This document shows positions 25,792 to 52,438 of a DNA stretch of 64,000 nt, in pieces (the first letter of the stretch is position 1; each line of letters opens with the position of its first letter). A program made the position numbers and the translations under genes. The stretch is taken from contig JAMPIC010000005.1 of the NCBI GenBank assembly GCA_023663025.1, forward strand, positions 13,735 through 77,734. The letters are read 5' to 3'. This DNA is from Prevotella sp. (GTDB taxonomy: Bacteria > Bacillota > Clostridia > Oscillospirales > Ruminococcaceae). The notes under the pieces were generated by a model. That model did no database searches. It saw only the letters and a program-made list of their open reading frames with translations, and was not told the origin of the DNA.

Positions 25792-25925
25792 ATGCGTATC
25801 CTCCTTTCGTCAGATTATATCATATTTTCCGCATATAATCAATAAAACCGTGAAAACAAAAAAATCCCCCGACAAAAGGCTGAACACGGTAAAGAAGTAT
25901 TTTAAAATTTTGAGAAAGGCTGCAA

Positions 25926-27605
<1,680 letters not shown>

Positions 27606-27701
27606 TTATACCACATCTTATTTTAAAATTCAATATGGTAAATTGCTAAATTTTATCTGACTTTTTTGACATAATCCGCTAATTTGCCGATTATATCAAA
27701 T

Positions 27702-27866
27702 TTATGCTGACCTTTGAATTTCCTTTCTTATTAACCTTGCGAGAATGTCTTTCAGGCTTTCGCCGTTTAAATTGAATTTGGTAACTACTTCGTATGTAGT
27801 GTACCCTATTTTGTATTTTGTAACTTCCTTTGGTGTATAGGTATTTATATATCCATTTCTAATCAT
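27702..27866 (-). CDS. TnpW-like small transposon protein (54 aa)
   Basis: MIRNGYINTYTPKEVTKYKIGYTTYEVVTKFNLNGESLKDILARLIRKEI matches the 'IG.T.Y.V...F......l.d.l.RLi..E' pattern of small proteins found beside TnpX-type recombinases. RBS GAAAGGAG. Confidence 0.5.
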   Translation of the reverse strand: MIRNGYINTYTPKEVTKYKIGYTTYEVVTKFNLNGESLKDILARLIRKEIQRSA

Positions 27867-27966
27867 TGAACTCCTTTCTGTCAAAGCGGGGTGTGTTCCA
27901 GCGTTTTATCGAACCTCCTTACATTTAAAAATTCACTACAAGGCATAAATATACTTTGTAAAGAAT

Positions 27967-27995
27967 ATTATATTCATTATGCTGAATTTTGTCAA
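27967..27995 (-). promoter_or_regulatory. Consensus sigma-70 promoter driving tnpW and the recombinase
   Basis: The minus strand reads TTGACA (complement of 27990-27995), a 17-nt spacer, then TATAAT (complement of 27967-27972). Confidence 0.55.
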
Positions 27996-28115
27996 GCTTT
28001 TAGAAACAAGTTTACAGAATGTTAATATTTGCCGTTTGTGAGAATTTTCCCGAACGGCGGATACTATGAAATAGTCCTAACCCACTATGACTATTTCCTC
28101 CGTAAATAGTCCTGT

Positions 28116-28200
28116 GGGAAAAACCGTCCTGCGGACGGTTTGGCTGTTCCTCTTGACCCCTATTGCAAAAAATCCTACCGCGTATCGCGATAGGATTTTG
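28116..28200 (-). terminator. Two tandem rho-independent terminators (minus strand)
   Basis: Hairpin 1 is AAACCGTCC-tgc-GGACGGTTT (28121-28141). Hairpin 2 is AAAATCCTAcCGCG-tat-CGCGaTAGGATTTT (28169-28199). Read on the minus strand, each is followed by a run of 5-6 T. Confidence 0.55.
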
Positions 28201-28540
28201 CATTGAATAAGAGCGGTTTTAGGTGAAACCTAAAATTTGGTAAAGGCATATGCACTTTACTGGGTGAAAGTATATGTATACTTTCTATGGCTTGCGAGCC
28301 TATGAAAAAACATTTTAACGGCGAAACCGCACTGCTTACTTAGGCTTTGCCCTAAGTAACGCCATAGTACATATGACATTGCCCTTTAAGGCAATATCAT
28401 ATGTACTGGCGCTCTCCGAGGGCAATATTTGCGGCGGTCTTAGGTGCAGCCGTACCTGCTTAGGTTTTGTCTCAAGTAATTTCATATGTGCAGGTGCTCT
28501 CATAGCGAAAACAGGAAATCAAGTAATGATTTCCTGTAAT
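28201..28540. ncRNA. Candidate structured RNA or long structured 3' UTR (hairpin-dense, ORF-free)
   Basis: No ORF here has an RBS. Perfect or near-perfect hairpins lie at 28217-28235, 28336-28359, 28366-28407 (11+6 bp) and 28511-28537 (11 bp). The region is bounded by minus-strand terminators. Class unknown. Confidence 0.25.
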
Positions 28541-28609
28541 TGCTTCAATATTATTTTTGCCCCATACATTAATTTTTATATTTTTTCGTTGATTAAGATA
28601 TAACTGTAC

Positions 28610-30031
28610 TTAATATGTAACTGAAATAGTAGGTGTGTCAATTCCATTGTAATTATCGTCCTTAATTTTTAAAGTAATTTCAAAATTTTCTATGTCTTCC
28701 GCACAGGAAACATTCGAATCATCAAGATACATATCCCATAATTTGATTTCTAAAATTACTGATTTACCAGCAGAAATAGTTTGACCATAAAAGCTATAAT
28801 CCATCATAAATCCGTTTACAGAAAATGAATCGTATTCATCAGTAATATAAATATCTTTTGTACTGCTGTTTTCGGCTAAAAGCATTATATGTATATCATT
28901 GCTATAAGCGCTGCTGTCGTCAATAGCTTTCTTTGAAACAATCCGTATGCCATTATTGTTATATATTTCCTCACCGGAATTGTCAAAGGACGATTTTACT
29001 TTTGGAATAGTAATTTTAATATCTGAGGAATCAATTATTTTGTCATAACTGTCACCCCGAACTACTAAATTAAATTCTATTTCTCCAATTTTATCTATGC
29101 CATACAAATCCCAAATGTTTTTTTCAATCATATTTGAAAACGCCATATCAACAACACAGCGTTTTCCCATATTAACGGTTTTGCTTGTCCAATTTCCGCT
29201 TTCAATAGTCAAACCATTCAAAGCAATATCACTTATACCAATATTAACAATTTCATCTGAATTGTTTTCAATTTCTAACAGTATAATATCATCACCGTCC
29301 TTATTTTTAAACAACATTTCAGAAATTAGGCGTATTCCATTGACATCATATAGTATATCTTCCGAAGAATAATTCAATGAATAGTCATATTTACTTTGGA
29401 GGGTATTACTTGATATTGCGTCTTTATAAGAATCAATAGTATAATCATAGGAATCATAGGCAGTAGTTTTTATTTGCAACGGACCGGTATAAATTTTATT
29501 GTAATCATCGTCCTCAATTTCAATATCTATTTCGATATCAGCAATTTCATTAATTCCATACAGACTTAATTCATTATAGCTGAATCCTATTGAGTCCATT
29601 GCCTTTTTCCCTGCTGAAACATCGCAATTCAAATAACCGCCATTGTACATATAGCCATTTACAGAATTACCGCTATGTCCCAAAGAGCCGGCAATAAACG
29701 ACAAGCTTTTGTTGCTGTTATTTTCAATCATAAGCTTAAGTTCCGCTTCATAATTATTGTAACTGAGTTCTGTTGCAGTAATTTTTACATCATTTTCGTC
29801 ATAGATAAGTATCTCTTCAATAGTCGCATTTTGTTTGAGTTCGGTTTTGTTCTCTGATTTAGTTTCGGTTTGAGCTGTGTAGGTTTCTTCATATTCTTCA
29901 TTACTTGTTGATACATCCTCATAGATTGCGTTTTCTAATGTTGTATTTTTTGTAGTGTCATTATCTTCATAGCAAGCAGTCATTGTCGCTGCAAGTAATA
30001 TTGTCATAAGTATTACTATTATTTTTTTCAT
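28610..30031 (-). CDS. Lipoprotein with three tandem ~130-aa beta-rich repeats
   Basis: Signal peptide and lipobox MKKIIVILMTILLAATMTAC (start 30031, RBS AAAGGAGG). Three repeats each contain a (L/I)xxENNS...NG(Y/L/F)... core and a Y/DxI.EIE..L.. tail. Confidence 0.75.
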   Translation of the reverse strand: MKKIIVILMTILLAATMTACYEDNDTTKNTTLENAIYEDVSTSNEEYEETYTAQTETKSENKTELKQNATIEEILIYDENDVKITATELSYNNYEAELKLMIENNSNKSLSFIAGSLGHSGNSVNGYMYNGGYLNCDVSAGKKAMDSIGFSYNELSLYGINEIADIEIDIEIEDDDYNKIYTGPLQIKTTAYDSYDYTIDSYKDAISSNTLQSKYDYSLNYSSEDILYDVNGIRLISEMLFKNKDGDDIILLEIENNSDEIVNIGISDIALNGLTIESGNWTSKTVNMGKRCVVDMAFSNMIEKNIWDLYGIDKIGEIEFNLVVRGDSYDKIIDSSDIKITIPKVKSSFDNSGEEIYNNNGIRIVSKKAIDDSSAYSNDIHIMLLAENSSTKDIYITDEYDSFSVNGFMMDYSFYGQTISAGKSVILEIKLWDMYLDDSNVSCAEDIENFEITLKIKDDNYNGIDTPTISVTY

Positions 30032-30144
30032 ACTGATACCTCCTTTCATAAAATTGTTTGAAATAATTAGGTTGCTTGCTAATTTTGCAAGTAAACTCTT
30101 TTCTTTTCCACTTCTGTTCATTATAAAGCTCCTTTTTTCAATAT

Positions 30145-30561
30145 TTAGGCAACATTACATTCTCTAATGTGAGATTTTACCAATGTTTGATTGGGTTTAA
30201 GAGTAATATCTCGTTCAATGGCTTCAGCTATTTTTGCGGGAGATGGATGATAGCCATTTGGTAAATTTCTAATATGTTCACACACATTAACGGGTATTTT
30301 TGTTGTTTCTAAATGGATTTTTGGAATTGAAACCGTTGGGGCAATCGGTAAAACTGTAATTTTCTCCATGTCAGCATAAGAATTAGGTGGTATTTTAGTT
30401 TGTGGTTTTTCAATGCTCCTTTTTAAATACTCCCATAACATAGTAATTGAGTCTCTATTTCTAATTGCTAAGATTATTGCAGTAAGACTCACTCCAACAA
30501 GAATCAATTCGTTCTTATGCTCTTTAACCCACTTGATAAATTTACTCTTTTGTTCTCTCAT
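30145..30561 (-). CDS. Membrane-anchored hypothetical protein (138 aa)
   Basis: One N-terminal TM helix (LILVGVSLTAIILAI). The C-terminal segment CEHIRNLPNGYHPSPAKIAEAIERDITLKPNQTLVKSHIRE belongs to no family I recognise. Confidence 0.6.
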   Translation of the reverse strand: MREQKSKFIKWVKEHKNELILVGVSLTAIILAIRNRDSITMLWEYLKRSIEKPQTKIPPNSYADMEKITVLPIAPTVSIPKIHLETTKIPVNVCEHIRNLPNGYHPSPAKIAEAIERDITLKPNQTLVKSHIRECNVA

Positions 30562-30643
30562 AATAAACCTCCGTAATAAATTATTAATTTTTGATACATT
30601 GTTTTTATTATTGTCATAATCTTATTTTTAAAACTATATGATA

Positions 30644-31717
30644 TCAATCCTCCCTTTTGTAGTTTTCGCAATAAATTTGGAATGAATTTGCGATATATCG
30701 GAATATGTATACTTTTACATTTTTCTTCTTGCATAAAATATATTCATCACTACGCAATAAAAAATAATCCTTAATGTTATCCAATAAAATTATGTTGTAG
30801 TCTTTTGAAACAATTTCAATTTTGGTCAAAATGCCGCATATTTGCTCAATTTCCCATTGTACCTCAGCAGAGAATGGACTTTTTTTATTCACACAAAATT
30901 TATAAAGGTTTTCAAAACTTTCTGTAAGAACCTTATCTATTTCATTATCCGAATTTTTCACAGTTGTGCAATAATATTTCACGGCATTAATGAAGAATAA
31001 TGTCTCATCGCAAGTTACTGTTGGTTCATCACCTGTCATAAGCCACACAGCAACACCTTCAAAAAATATTACAGATTCCGAAATAACCTTCGAAATAATT
31101 TTATGTATTTCTGTAATTTTAAGCTGTACCTCTTCTGAATAATAGGAATATTTTTCAGCATAAAGTTTTTTGGTATTTTCAAGAGCTTCAATCAAAATAT
31201 CCACTTCTTCGTCTGTAAAAGCTTTACTGATAAGGTCGTCATATTCATCACTAAGGCTTTTTCCAAAGCGAAAATTTTTACCAATTAATGAGAGGTATTT
31301 TATAGTTTTATCATAGTTCCATTTACTGTTTAAGTTAAGAATAATCTCAGGTGTGATACCCGTTTCCAATATAGCTTCTTGGGCATCAATATCCCTGTCG
31401 TACTCTTCTCTGCGCTTTTTTAACTTATTAAGATATTTTTCATGAAATGTTTTATAATTAAAATCAGTAGATTTTCCATAAATAATTTTTTTAATCTCTG
31501 AATTAGTGTACCAATCTTTTTTATTTTTGCAAAGCCCATTATAATCTTTTATCTCTTTTATCATACGGATTTTTTTAATTTCCATTTCATCAAAATGTTG
31601 TGCAATTCCTTGCCCTGTTTTATGAGTATCAAGTATTGCATCTATCCATCCTTGAAGTGTTTGTTTCGGTACATCAAGTTCTTTACTCAATTGAGAAACG
31701 GTTTTGATTTTTTTCAT
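30644..31717 (-). CDS. HTH (MerR/excisionase-like) domain protein with a ~300-aa helical C-terminal region
   Basis: N-terminus MKKIKTVSQLSKELDVPKQTLQGWI (HTH). The remainder is helical with an internal duplication (SEEVQLKITEIHKIISK / SAEVQWEIEQICGILTK). RBS AAAGGAGG. Confidence 0.6.
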   Translation of the reverse strand: MKKIKTVSQLSKELDVPKQTLQGWIDAILDTHKTGQGIAQHFDEMEIKKIRMIKEIKDYNGLCKNKKDWYTNSEIKKIIYGKSTDFNYKTFHEKYLNKLKKRREEYDRDIDAQEAILETGITPEIILNLNSKWNYDKTIKYLSLIGKNFRFGKSLSDEYDDLISKAFTDEEVDILIEALENTKKLYAEKYSYYSEEVQLKITEIHKIISKVISESVIFFEGVAVWLMTGDEPTVTCDETLFFINAVKYYCTTVKNSDNEIDKVLTESFENLYKFCVNKKSPFSAEVQWEIEQICGILTKIEIVSKDYNIILLDNIKDYFLLRSDEYILCKKKNVKVYIFRYIANSFQIYCENYKRED

Positions 31718-31930
31718 ACAGATACCTCCTTTATTTAAGTATAAAACTTACTGAGATCAGAAAGCAATACTATATTTTCAACAAATTTTTACAATGCTTT
31801 TTGTTAAGTATGACAGAAATAAATTGCATATACAAAAGCTGCCGATACATTAGTATAAGTATCGACAGCCATATAATCCGCTGTATTTGTCTTTTAATAA
31901 TATTTTTGAAAAACTTCTACATCGCTGTCA

Positions 31931-32040
31931 GCCTAAAGGCTGAGCCTTTGCCCTTATGGGCGTATATTGCCTGTAAGGGTAAATTGCTCCCACGGGCAAC
32001 AATACTTCCGTACCGTTACCTGCCTAAAGCCGAGGGACTT
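31931..32040 (-). repeat. Structured intergenic repeat, copy A (functional strand inferred as minus)
   Basis: The plus strand reads gcctAAAGGCtgaGCCTTTgCCCTTAtgggcgtatattgcctgTAAGGGtaaattgctcccacgggcaacaatacttccgtaccgtt... It starts 35 nt after the stop of the minus-strand gene 32075-32971. Confidence 0.6.
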
Positions 32041-49870: not shown

Positions 49871-49917
49871 GTATACACCGTCCGTCCTCTCAATAAACAG
49901 AGGGCGGACGGGTGTAC
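49871..49917 (+). terminator. GC-rich hairpin terminator after the GH94 gene
   Basis: ACACCGTCCGTCCTCT-caataaac-AGAGGGCGGACGGGTGT. The trailing T-tract is weak (tgtataatttt). Confidence 0.55.
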
Positions 49918-49948
49918 TGTATAATTTTGCAAAAAAGGAGAATTTTTT

Positions 49949-49987
49949 ATGAAAAATAATCATGTAAGCACGCCGATTGCAGACTGA
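49949..49987 (+). CDS. 12-codon upstream ORF (candidate leader peptide)
   Basis: ATG AAA AAT AAT CAT GTA AGC ACG CCG ATT GCA GAC TGA (MKNNHVSTPIAD). There is a strong AAAGGAG 8 nt upstream and a TATAAT at 49919-49924. Confidence 0.3.
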   Translation: MKNNHVSTPIAD

Positions 49988-50019
49988 CCGGGAGGTTAGT
50001 TTTGCAGCAGCCTCCCGAA

Positions 50020-50120
50020 AAGGTCTTTGGAAGAAACAGTACGAAAGTATTGTTACCCGTGGGAGCATTTTCCTCTTATTGGTAAAGTATGCCTATAAGG
50101 GTAAAGGCTCAGCCTTTTTT
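50020..50120 (+). repeat. Structured intergenic repeat, copy C (functional strand plus), ending in a terminator-like hairpin with a T7 tract
   Basis: ...aacagtacgaaagtattgttacccgtgggagcattttCCtCTTAttggtaaagtatgcctaTAAGGGtAAAGGCtcaGCCTTTTTTTgg. This is the reverse complement of copies A, B and D and lies 14 nt upstream of the RNHCP gene start. Confidence 0.6.
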
Positions 50121-50133
50121 TGGAGGAATTTCA

Positions 50134-50568
50134 GTGAACAGAGAAAACAAAAGAAAAGCATACGAAAAGGGTTACTATAAAAGCCACCCCTGCAAGGACG
50201 TTTTTACCTGCAAAGTCTGCGGACGACAGGTCGTCTCCGAGGGGGCGGGAAGCGAACACAGAAACCATTGCCCAAACTGCCTGTCAAGTCTGCACGTTGA
50301 CAACGAGCCGGGGGACAGGTCGTCCGACTGCGGCGGAATAATGGAGCCTGTGGCGGTGTGGATTAAAAAGGGCGGCGAGTGGTCGGTGGTACACCGCTGC
50401 AAACGCTGCGGGAAGTTCACCGCAAACCGCACAGCCGCCGACGATAACCCCGTGAAACTAATGTCAATCGCAATGAAGCCGCTGGCGAACCCGCCGTTCC
50501 CCATAGAGTTCCTGGAGGAGCTTACGGAGCAGATGGGCGGCGGTTCGATACCGAACGTCGGGGAGTAG
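50134..50568 (+). CDS. RNHCP-domain zinc-ribbon protein
   Basis: FTCKVCGRQV...EHRNHCPNCLSSLHVD...CGG...HRCKRCG contains the RNHCP motif and paired CxxC motifs. GTG start at 50134 with GGAGG 7 nt upstream. Confidence 0.75.
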   Translation: MNRENKRKAYEKGYYKSHPCKDVFTCKVCGRQVVSEGAGSEHRNHCPNCLSSLHVDNEPGDRSSDCGGIMEPVAVWIKKGGEWSVVHRCKRCGKFTANRTAADDNPVKLMSIAMKPLANPPFPIEFLEELTEQMGGGSIPNVGE

Positions 50569-50701
50569 GCTTACCTATATGCAATAAAAAACCGGAGCAA
50601 AGCCGTTAAAAAGTTGTGGCTTTTGCGCCGGTTTTTTGCGTTTTCAATCGCATATCTGTCTATGTCAATTCCGCAAAAAACAAATTTCAACAGGCGGGAA
50701 C

Positions 50702-50795
50702 AAAGACTGAGCCTTTACCCTTTTAGACGCAATATGTTAAAAAGGGTAAATTGTTCCCATGTGTAACAATACTTCCGTAACACTGCCTATCTAAG
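50702..50795 (-). repeat. Structured intergenic repeat, copy B
   Basis: The plus strand reads AAAGACtgaGCCTTTaCCCTTTTagacgcaatatgttaAAAAGGGtaaattgttcccatgtgtaacaatacttccgtaacactgcc. It begins about 9 nt after the stop of the minus-strand histidine kinase gene. Confidence 0.6.
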
Positions 50796-50803
50796 TCCCC
50801 GCC

Positions 50804-52438
50804 CTATGCTTTTACGGGTATCTTTATCACCGCGCTGAACCCTATCCCCTCCCCCGACCTGAACACTGCCGTTCCGCCGAGAGCTTCCGTCCTTTCGGTT
50901 ATGCCTTTCAGACCGTCGTGAGCGGTTATTTCCGCGCAGCCCCTGCCGTTGTCGAACACATACAGCTCCATAGACGTTCCGAGAAATTTTATGATAACGT
51001 CTATCCTGTCCGCACCCGAATACCTTACCGCATTGGTGATAAGCTCCCGAAAGCTGCTGTACACGCTCTGCACGCAGAACGCGTAGCTGCTGTCCTCCGC
51101 GCCCTGCGCGCACACTTTGACGCTTATGTCCCTCACCGCGTTCGCAACCGTCCTTACGGCGGCGGTGACGGTAGTCATAAAGCTGTCCTCCCGCAGGTCG
51201 TTTATTGAGCACCTCAGCTGGGTAAGTCCCCCTCTTGCCAGCGATTCCGTCTGCTCGGCGAAATCAAGCAGCTCCTCCGCTTCGGGCACAGCCCGTATAT
51301 TGGCGATACGCGACTTTGACAGCTTTGCGAGGGAGCTTATCATCGTAAAGGTATGCCCCGCAGTGTCGTGTACCTCTTGGGCTATCCTGTTCCGCTCCTG
51401 CTCCAGAGCCAGCTTCTGCCGCGCGAGAGCAAGCTCGTCGTTTTTTTCGATAAGCTGATAGTAACGGGATATATCTGAAATGATTATCAGCCGCGCTATC
51501 GGTATGCCGTTTCCGTTGCGGCAGAAATAGTGCTTTATGCCGTACACAATCCCGTCTTTTTCGATTTCCGCGCGGTCGAAGCTTTCGCTTATCCTTTTGC
51601 CGTTGAGTTCGGAAATATACTCCATAAAAGAAGCAAGGTCGGTTTTTGCGGTAATGCCCAGCTGCTTTTTCGCCATACCGTTGATGTAGGAAATACGCCC
51701 GCGCCTGTTGAAAACCGCCACGCCCTCCTCAATGGAGTTGAACGCGTCCTCAAAGGCGATCTCGTTCACGTTCAGAAAACCGTAACGGTATGTCGCGAGA
51801 AGCACCAGTATACCCGACAAAACAAAGGATACGGGGGTCAGCGCAAAGTCAAGGGTTATCACGTCCGCAAGGGTGAGCAGGTTTATCGTCAGGGGTACGG
51901 CGGTACTTAACGTCAGCAGCACTGCCTGTCCCCGCGAACGTTCTTTTATCTCAAAGCATTTTTTGCAGATAAGGACAATGCCCGCAAGCATAACCGTATA
52001 TGTATACACCTGTAAAACGTAGAAAAGCGGACCGTGTACGATCCTATCCGCCGAAAATTCGGAGTAGTAAAGCCGGTGCAGCGGATTTGCCGCCGCGCAT
52101 ACAAACATAACGGCGGAAAAGGTCAGAGTTTCGATAACAAGGGGTTTTGAAAGCTCCCTGTCCATATAGCTCACAGCGAACAGCAGCCAGCAGCTCCCAA
52201 GAAAGCTGATACCGAGGTTGCCCACGGCGTAGCTTACGGCAAGCTGACGTTCGCTTTCCGAAAAGATTATCATAAGCTGGGAGACTATCCAAAGGAGCTG
52301 CGAAAGCAGGCAGCAGACGAAAAGGAACGTCACCCTGCTGCGGCTGCCCCCGAAAGCGAGCCACAGTATCAGCCCGCACACCGTAAAAAGAGCCGCCAGC
52401 AGCATTCCCGTTATTACGGGCAGCAATTCTGTATTCAT
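50804..52438 (-). CDS. Sensor histidine kinase (N-terminal 7TM domain, PAS-like, HisKA_3, HATPase_c); no cognate response regulator adjacent
   Basis: Seven N-terminal TM helices, the H-box QERNRIAQEVHDTAGHTFTMI (HisKA_3, the NarL/LuxR-partner type), and N and G boxes (ELITNAVRYSGA, DNGRG, GLKGITER). Confidence 0.85.
   Translation of the reverse strand: MNTELLPVITGMLLAALFTVCGLILWLAFGGSRSRVTFLFVCCLLSQLLWIVSQLMIIFSESERQLAVSYAVGNLGISFLGSCWLLFAVSYMDRELSKPLVIETLTFSAVMFVCAAANPLHRLYYSEFSADRIVHGPLFYVLQVYTYTVMLAGIVLICKKCFEIKERSRGQAVLLTLSTAVPLTINLLTLADVITLDFALTPVSFVLSGILVLLATYRYGFLNVNEIAFEDAFNSIEEGVAVFNRRGRISYINGMAKKQLGITAKTDLASFMEYISELNGKRISESFDRAEIEKDGIVYGIKHYFCRNGNGIPIARLIIISDISRYYQLIEKNDELALARQKLALEQERNRIAQEVHDTAGHTFTMISSLAKLSKSRIANIRAVPEAEELLDFAEQTESLARGGLTQLRCSINDLREDSFMTTVTAAVRTVANAVRDISVKVCAQGAEDSSYAFCVQSVYSSFRELITNAVRYSGADRIDVIIKFLGTSMELYVFDNGRGCAEITAHDGLKGITERTEALGGTAVFRSGEGIGFSAVIKIPVKA

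Follow-up and report, generated by a model that had tools for sequence, protein, structure and literature searches.

A putative ancestral attenuator of the erm type in the leader of an RNHCP zinc-ribbon gene, interrupted by a miniature mobile repeat

A stretch of 64,000 nucleotides (nt) from a genome deposited as Prevotella sp. and placed by GTDB in the Ruminococcaceae (assembly GCA_023663025.1, contig JAMPIC010000005.1, positions 13,735 to 77,734), hereafter called the window, contains a gene for an RNHCP zinc-ribbon protein of 144 amino acids (50134-50568, plus strand, GTG start at 50134; PF12647, E=1.5e-38). The gene lies between two inverted copies of a dispersed repeat of about 92 nt, copy C upstream and copy B downstream. 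It is probably an ancestral chromosomal gene with an ancestral attenuator of the erm type, the repeat having been inserted twice, independently, in this leader and in the terminator of the neighbouring gene, and the switch formed by this leader is predicted to tolerate copy C. The leader apparently represents an undescribed, conserved family of erm-type translational attenuators: six intact leaders had no match in Rfam (E up to 1; one 5S rRNA match was unrelated to the leader), and a literature search on leader peptides, RsgA and stalling returned nothing on a GGGAGG/CCUCCC leader.

The leader in the window is built from an upstream open reading frame (uORF) and four pairing segments, all on the plus strand. 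The uORF, including its Shine-Dalgarno (SD) sequence, spans 49937-49987, with the SD GGAGA at 49937-49941, ATG at 49949, 12 codons encoding MKNNHVSTPIAD, and TGA at 49985-49987. An earlier reading of the window, hereafter the sequence-only reading, had noted a strong SD and had given the open reading frame at 49949-49987 and the peptide exactly so. Segment 1 (49975-49989) corresponds to the 3′ end of the uORF and, in the minimum free energy (MFE) fold, provides the 5′ arm of hairpin 1:2, a pairing also seen in covariation. Segment 2 (49990-50007) comprises a GGGA loop and the 3′ arm, and its GGGAGG is complementary to segment 3 and would act as an anti-anti-SD. Segment 3 (50011-50023) is made up of the anti-SD CCTCCC followed by GAAAAGG, and segment 4 (50115-50126) of a U-tract (50115-50121) and the SD of the RNHCP gene, GGAGG (50122-50126). 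Two details of the sequence-only reading needed correction by a single position. The hairpin CGGGAGG...CCTCCCG is present, with arms at 49989-49995 and 50011-50017, and ends at 50017 instead of 50016, and a TATAAT upstream is present at 49920-49925, not at 49919-49924. The TATAAT is a possible -10 box of the RNHCP leader without a consensus -35 box; a promoter scan found no two-hexamer promoter for the leader, and the position of the TATAAT is conserved in the closest relative, a metagenome-assembled genome of Ruminococcus sp. (locus L024) whose RNHCP protein is 96 % identical in amino acid sequence.

The same architecture was found at about 64 of the 80 best RNHCP loci in GTDB genomes, with carriers including Faecalibacterium, Lawsonibacter, Acutalibacter, Christensenella, Oscillibacter and even an Adlercreutzia. 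The 5′ part typically reads AAGGAGA, a spacer of 6-8 nt, a TTG, ATG or GTG start and 9-24 codons (mostly 10-20). The 3′ part reads GGGA-closed hairpin, CCUCCC-RAAAG, a loop of 17-33 nt, CUUUU-(A)-GGAGG and the start codon. A uORF preceded by an SD was present in 59 of 62 distinct RNHCP leaders, and likewise before the GNAT and RsgA genes described below; in most leaders it stops 5-6 nt before GGGA. In congeneric genomes the uORF, CCGGGAGG, CCTCCC and GGAGG are all present in the absence of the repeat. The uORF and the CGGGAGG/CCTCCCG hairpin are ancestral and not derived from the element.

Individual loci carry variants of the leader. In another species (L033, CAKUJL010000044.1) the leader contains an insert of about 190 nt, located some 250 to 40 nt ahead of the RNHCP start, that separates the GGGA hairpin (ctgaccgggaggtctggc) from the anti-SD (cattcctccc) and would be a second, independent loop insertion into this switch. 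At L016 and L026 (G015) the uORF and its SD are present as a tandem duplicate (MNIKFNYEAVVVAV, MNIKFNYKAVVIAV) upstream of RNHCP, with the CCGGGAGG hairpin after the second uORF copy only. A congeneric RNHCP gene at L019 (G001) has no leader; the short open reading frame in its place seems to be a duplicate of the 5′ end of the gene that follows RNHCP (MKQKVNINTLMSALVCVYH.. vs MEQKASITALMSAFVRAYH..).

Covariation supports all three competing helices. In an alignment of 46 sequences, helices 1:2 and 3:4 together were 87 % paired, with 97 double-sided-change cells compared with 37.5±7.4 in shuffled alignments (0 of 500 shuffles as high), and in slid controls pairing dropped to 39-58 %. Helix 3:4 by itself was 94 % paired and covarying. 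The core of the alternative helix 2:3, GGGAGG:CCUCCC, was 97-100 % complementary across 60 leaders, two of which carry the compensated pair GAGAGG:CCUCUC. A 4-bp extension of this helix occurs as UGCG:CGCA or UGGC:GCCA, with G-C and C-G nearly equally frequent at two positions; its paired fraction was 0.69 compared with 0.49±0.03 in shuffles (0 of 1000 as high).

The probability that the SD of the regulated gene is unpaired, P(SD unpaired), was calculated for the 62 distinct leaders with all RNA 5′ of a moving boundary forced to be single-stranded, the boundary being a stand-in for the leading edge of a ribosome and the folding being thermodynamic only. The mean was 0.08 in free RNA, 0.23-0.57 with the boundary 9 to 0 nt before GGGA, and 0.00-0.04 with the boundary at +3 to +24, where GGGAGG is covered; it climbed again with the boundary at +30 or beyond. 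From general knowledge of footprints, the leading edge of a ribosome was assumed to lie about 13 nt ahead of the P site, which would place the ON window at a ribosome held with 3-5 codons remaining to the uORF stop. The RNHCP SD is predicted to be masked in free RNA and to be opened only by a ribosome in that position. In free RNA, helices 1:2 and 3:4 would form and hide the SD (OFF). With a ribosome held about 3-5 codons ahead of the stop, segment 1 would be melted while GGGAGG stayed free, helix 2:3 would then form and the SD would be exposed (ON). A ribosome reaching the uORF stop would cover GGGAGG, and the switch would remain OFF. The trigger would be a stalled ribosome on the uORF, in which ribosome arrest is predicted.

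Copy C (50024-50114, plus strand) lies in the loop of the hairpin formed by segments 3 and 4. Colinearity of the window with L024 extends from the upstream GH94 (cellobiose-phosphorylase-like) gene as far as 50023, at 90.7 % identity, and resumes at 50115 to continue through the RNHCP gene, at 93.9 % identity; between these flanks, the 91 nt of copy C in the window are matched by a loop of 13 nt in L024. A covariance model of the repeat (R1) matched the window at 50023-50120 on the plus strand with 94 bits (E=1e-19). By its position, copy C cuts the gene off from the remainder of its conserved leader, which argues for insertion and not for capture. The RNHCP gene has orthologues in eight other genomes of the genus, in addition to two fragments cut at contig ends. 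No repeat was found within 1.5 kb on either side of the seven complete congeneric loci in a full-sensitivity covariance-model search with filters off, and none near 43 further RNHCP loci from other Clostridia. The linkage of GH94 and RNHCP genes also occurs without the repeat in L024, G002 and G004. The loop sequence of L024 is too diverged to define a target duplication at copy C, and no transposase is present between copies C and B, in agreement with the sequence-only reading, which had seen neither a transposase nor an obvious target-site duplication.

The uORF, the four pairing segments and the RNHCP reading frame are all intact despite copy C. In the MFE fold of the window leader, helices 1:2 and 3:4 are kept, with 3:4 closing around the folded repeat, and P(SD unpaired) was calculated as 0.01 for free RNA and reached at most 0.38 for the stalled state. 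On the evidence of this folding the switch would still work with the insert, and the interruption of the leader by the repeat is probably harmless.

Copy B (50702-50794, minus strand; model match 50699-50796, 85.7 bits, E=8e-18) lies in the 3′ untranslated region of a convergent gene for a 7TM-HisKA_3 histidine kinase (50804-52438, minus strand, assigned by Pfam), in the loop of its terminator-like stem. The two arms, GGGCGGGGAC (50804-50795) and GTTCCCGCC (50701-50693), enclose the copy right after the stop codon of the kinase, which fits an insertion into the loop of the kinase terminator. Copies C and B are 77 % complementary across 81 nt, and the AAAGGC-loop-GCCTTT hairpins of both are on the side proximal to the gene; the inverted flanking of the 144-aa gene and the orientation of these hairpins had been recognized in the sequence-only reading. 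The window ceases to be colinear with L024 immediately past the RNHCP stop codon (50569 onwards), and the sequence to the right may have been acquired specifically in this lineage. Taken from these comparisons, the inverted bracket appears to consist of two independent repeat insertions, a by-product of landing in hairpin loops, with the gene itself not mobilised.

The repeat appears to be a miniature, non-autonomous mobile element similar to miniature inverted-repeat transposable elements, with about 30 dispersed, non-coding copies and an empty site in L024. In the 2.5-Mb genome 32 loci were found by BLAST and iterated nhmmer, 24 of them near full length. The 92-nt unit folds into three hairpins, with 90 % of cells paired and compensatory changes mainly in the middle hairpin; both the copy number and the pairing are far beyond chance. 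With the model R1, the repeat was detected in 13 of 25 genomes of the genus, including the genome of the window, and in more than 20 copies (21-60) in eight genomes of the genus. It was absent from 16 other families of the order, and this absence, together with the patchy distribution in the genus, is the pattern of a mobile repeat. The window gave no Rfam match to the repeat at the gathering threshold or at E up to 10, where only chance miRNA-like matches appeared. The copies are more clustered than random placement predicts and are mostly at gene ends, with 14 in convergent and two in divergent contexts; in tandem contexts their strand showed no real preference (9 vs 7). A rule by which the repeat would always share the orientation of the upstream gene (23 of 32) was discarded, as convergent pairs yield such counts by definition. 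No outward promoter was found in the repeat by eye or by promoter scan, and, as regards terminal inverted repeats, its two ends show only a weak AGGC..GCCT match.

A subset of the copies is located in loops of pre-existing hairpins, and the enrichment is modest. For the 24 near-full-length copies the energy of the duplex formed by the flanks was -8.9 kcal/mol compared with -7.1 kcal/mol for the control (Mann-Whitney p=0.04). The flanking duplex of copy B was the strongest among the 24 (-22.8 kcal/mol) and that of copy C was -11.2 kcal/mol.

Some copies elsewhere in the genome have further features. A head-to-tail triple with a period of 91-92 nt (contig C11:163534-163807) is contained within one terminator-like stem (AAAAGCTCCCG ... 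CGGGGGCTTTT). Five copies (window 31910-31937, C5:39916, C20:24570, C44:58648 and C44:93646) have the 3′ extension GGNTGANNGCGATGYAGAAGTTT, which resembles the repeat's own 5′ end and the left end (25877-25904) of a 6-kb serine-recombinase island in the window, whose recombinase is placed at 25800-31840. The similarity of this left end to the repeat 5′ end scored 31, slightly above the background maximum of 29. An inward-facing inverted pair on contig C44 (93646-94468; copies at 93646 and 94384, 650 nt apart) brackets a 94-aa N-terminal fragment of a serine recombinase, apparently a decayed island. The RNHCP terminators of L015 and L017 (G009, G008) have the sequence AAAGGCTGAGCAGACGTTCTGTTCAGCCTTT, the outer stem of which is nearly identical to the last hairpin of the repeat, AAAGGC-TCA-GCCTTT.

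The leader is not confined to RNHCP genes. Of 300 Clostridia genomes searched with a covariance model of the leader (R2), 24 gave matches, representing 22 of 178 genera, and the genes behind the matches encode RNHCP (8), a GNAT acetyltransferase of about 208 aa (10) and an RsgA-family GTPase of about 360 aa (7; TIGR00157, 166 bits with a cut-off of 100; PF03193, E=2e-51). Two weak matches are probably false. As the same leader drives RNHCP, GNAT or RsgA-family GTPase genes in different Clostridia, it most likely reports slowed or arrested ribosomes.

Across many Clostridial families the RNHCP protein shares 72-96 % identity, and 3,684 homologues were retrieved. The gene in the window differs from that of L024 by 18 synonymous and four non-synonymous codon differences, and appears from this comparison to be under purifying selection. 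A PDB sequence search gave no meaningful solved relative. Of two AlphaFold2 models, the first was poor, with a predicted local distance difference test score (pLDDT) of 59, and the second reached 75; with the latter, a Foldseek search of the PDB gave no fold relative below E=0.1, the template-modelling (TM) score being 0.25 or less. Literature searches retrieved only chemistry papers for 'RNHCP' and none for 'PF12647'. Tentatively, the leader may be a so far undescribed, widespread sensor of ribosome stalling which controls a small regulon in Clostridia, consisting of RNHCP, an extra RsgA-family 30S GTPase and the GNAT. RNHCP itself might then be a ribosome-associated factor, turned on upon impairment of elongation or of small-subunit function, such as a ribosome-targeting natural product might cause.

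Several observations weigh against the reading of an ancestral attenuator with two independent, tolerated insertions. An empty site for copy B was not found, the histidine kinase gene having no orthologue in 25 relatives. The targeting of hairpin loops is clear in only part of the repeat family, with 4 of the 24 near-full-length copies beyond the 5th percentile of the control. The 91-nt insert could alter co-transcriptional folding or add weak termination at its last hairpin and the U7 tract, and a modest polar or kinetic effect of copy C could result. In a second class of leaders the uORF stop lies downstream of the first G of GGGAGG, by 8-22 nt, and these may be somewhat different in their working. 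In the 3′ half of the uORF a wobble G and a third-position T are fixed while the amino acid varies, and such invariant wobble bases indicate a constraint at the RNA level. A peptide arrest motif (E/D-I/L-V/A) was considered for the uORF and not adopted for the same reason.

The second class of leaders and the constraint at the RNA level would also fit a leader that is not a stall sensor and instead couples RNHCP translation to the rate of uORF translation, or one whose GGGA hairpin is bound by a protein or a small ligand. The 3′ codons look constrained as RNA rather than as peptide, and in leaders whose uORF passes through GGGAGG to end in the loop, the anti-SD could be directly accessible to a terminating ribosome, an access with which the renewed rise of P(SD unpaired) at +30 or beyond is in accordance. 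Such a role is considered rather unlikely, as three unrelated gene families lie behind the same leader, which makes autoregulation by RNHCP less likely and favours a sensor of the state of the ribosome. Nearly all leaders have the uORF together with its SD and start codon, and the strongly conserved bases are limited to SD-like, anti-SD and loop bases, with no aptamer-like core.

The insertion might also have broken the switch in this lineage, leaving RNHCP constitutively leaky or silenced. With a structured insert of 91 nt between segments 3 and 4, segment 4 would be synthesized later and the loop would be costlier to close, and the ON level predicted for the window leader, 0.38, compares with a family mean of 0.57. 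Loss of the switch is nevertheless unlikely, given that no segment, uORF or reading frame has been damaged, that the predicted OFF state is retained and that synonymous differences from L024 outnumber non-synonymous ones, an observation whose weight would depend on the age of the insert.

The sequence-only reading had offered two explanations for the bracket, one being that the element had been co-opted, its last hairpin and U7 acting as a premature terminator and, together with the uORF, as a transcription attenuator of RNHCP. A uORF-based attenuator does exist at this site; it appears to be ancestral, to act on translation by SD sequestration and to be conserved across Clostridia without the element, so that the part of the proposal in which the uORF and terminator form an element-derived device did not hold. 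The motif is as it had been described, with AAAGGC-TCA-GCCTTT followed by T7 (50115-50121) 14 nt before the GTG start codon, directly upstream of GGAGG, and the 3′ arm of the hairpin competes with the inner part of helix 3:4, a competition through which the state of the switch could influence whether the hairpin forms. The hairpin has 6 bp, three of them G-C pairs, and a folding energy of -5.2 kcal/mol, compared with -35 kcal/mol for the long terminator hairpin of the GH94 gene (49873-49915, plus strand; GH94 assigned by domain search) and -23.2 kcal/mol for the intrinsic terminator of the RNHCP gene (50586-50642, plus strand), which is followed by T6. It was the only candidate for the strong leader terminator expected of a leader-peptide transcription attenuator, was not called by the terminator scan and is unformed in the MFE structure of the window leader. 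The U-tract is itself ancestral, as T8 followed by GGAGG occupies the same place in L024, and the leaders of relatives have no hairpin followed by a U-run and would regulate without any terminator. A co-opted terminator is accordingly regarded as quite unlikely.

The other explanation, that RNHCP was captured or mobilised between the two copies as a composite unit, can be dismissed as extremely improbable, also by the condition for refutation that the sequence-only reading had itself set: the inward-facing geometry is like that of the element-like ends bounding the 6-kb serine-recombinase island, the pair on C44 brackets a truncated recombinase gene and repeat copies do cluster, but there is no recombinase gene between copies C and B, orthologous RNHCP loci lack the repeat and in three cases adjoin the same GH94 gene, copy C is a clean insert inside a leader conserved with RNHCP across Clostridia, and a bracketed unit would be without its own control region, the uORF and segments 1-3 being outside copy C.

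The RNHCP leader resembles the leaders of ermC, ermA and ermB (also cat86 and cmlA) in having a short uORF preceded by an SD, resting helices 1:2 and 3:4, of which 3:4 hides the SD of the regulated gene, and an alternative helix 2:3 whose formation, with a ribosome occupying segment 1, would release the SD. Of these features, the uORF is conserved in the RNHCP leader, the SD is sequestered in a helix, and the mutually exclusive helix 2:3 is supported by complementarity and covariation, the opening of the SD through it being a thermodynamic prediction. There is no sequence relationship between the RNHCP and erm-type leaders. The RNHCP leader differs further in that its segment 2 carries an SD mimic, GGGAGG, which spans a GNRA-type GGGA loop, and in that the regulated genes encode RNHCP, GNAT and RsgA-family GTPase proteins instead of rRNA methylases or acetyltransferases of known drugs.

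Sensor uORFs for ribosome-targeting antibiotics are also known ahead of translation factors, reported examples being the leader of msrD (PMC10314930) and, in E. coli, the toiL uORF upstream of topAI-yjhQ (PMC12121999), which turn on downstream genes. Both leaders are like the RNHCP leader in having a regulatory uORF that reports ribosome stalling, and differ from it in sequence and organism. YjhQ, the partner encoded downstream of toiL, is a GNAT protein. The readout of the msrD and toiL systems is reportedly mainly transcriptional, through termination or Rho.

Miniature repeats located at gene ends are common to several bacteria and include REP/BIME, the pneumococcal RUP and BOX, bcr1 of Bacillus cereus and the Correia elements of Neisseria. 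The 92-nt repeat is like these in being small, non-coding, multi-copy, structured and intergenic, with most copies at the 3′ ends of genes, and in showing presence/absence polymorphism at orthologous sites. Unlike them, neither terminal inverted repeats nor a target duplication are clear in it, several of its copies are in the loops of pre-existing hairpins, and its 5′ end resembles the ends of a serine-recombinase island.

The bracket of repeats around the RNHCP gene is ordinary, and the leader beneath it is more useful. The positions of copies C and B illustrate the ability of the repeat family to land in hairpin loops, and a structured repeat of 91 nt in the loop of an SD-masking hairpin offers a natural test of the tolerance of such switches; if the stall-sensor regulon is real, copy C would be a natural loop-insertion variant of its switch. 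Leader-peptide attenuators are known mainly from drug-resistance genes, and this leader would add a new family to them. The covariation-backed switch connects the uncharacterised, highly conserved RNHCP protein (PF12647) to an RsgA-family GTPase and a GNAT. The leader shared with the RsgA-family GTPase is the best lead on the function of RNHCP, and the shared control offers a direct experimental handle on that function, namely what stalls ribosomes on the uORF.

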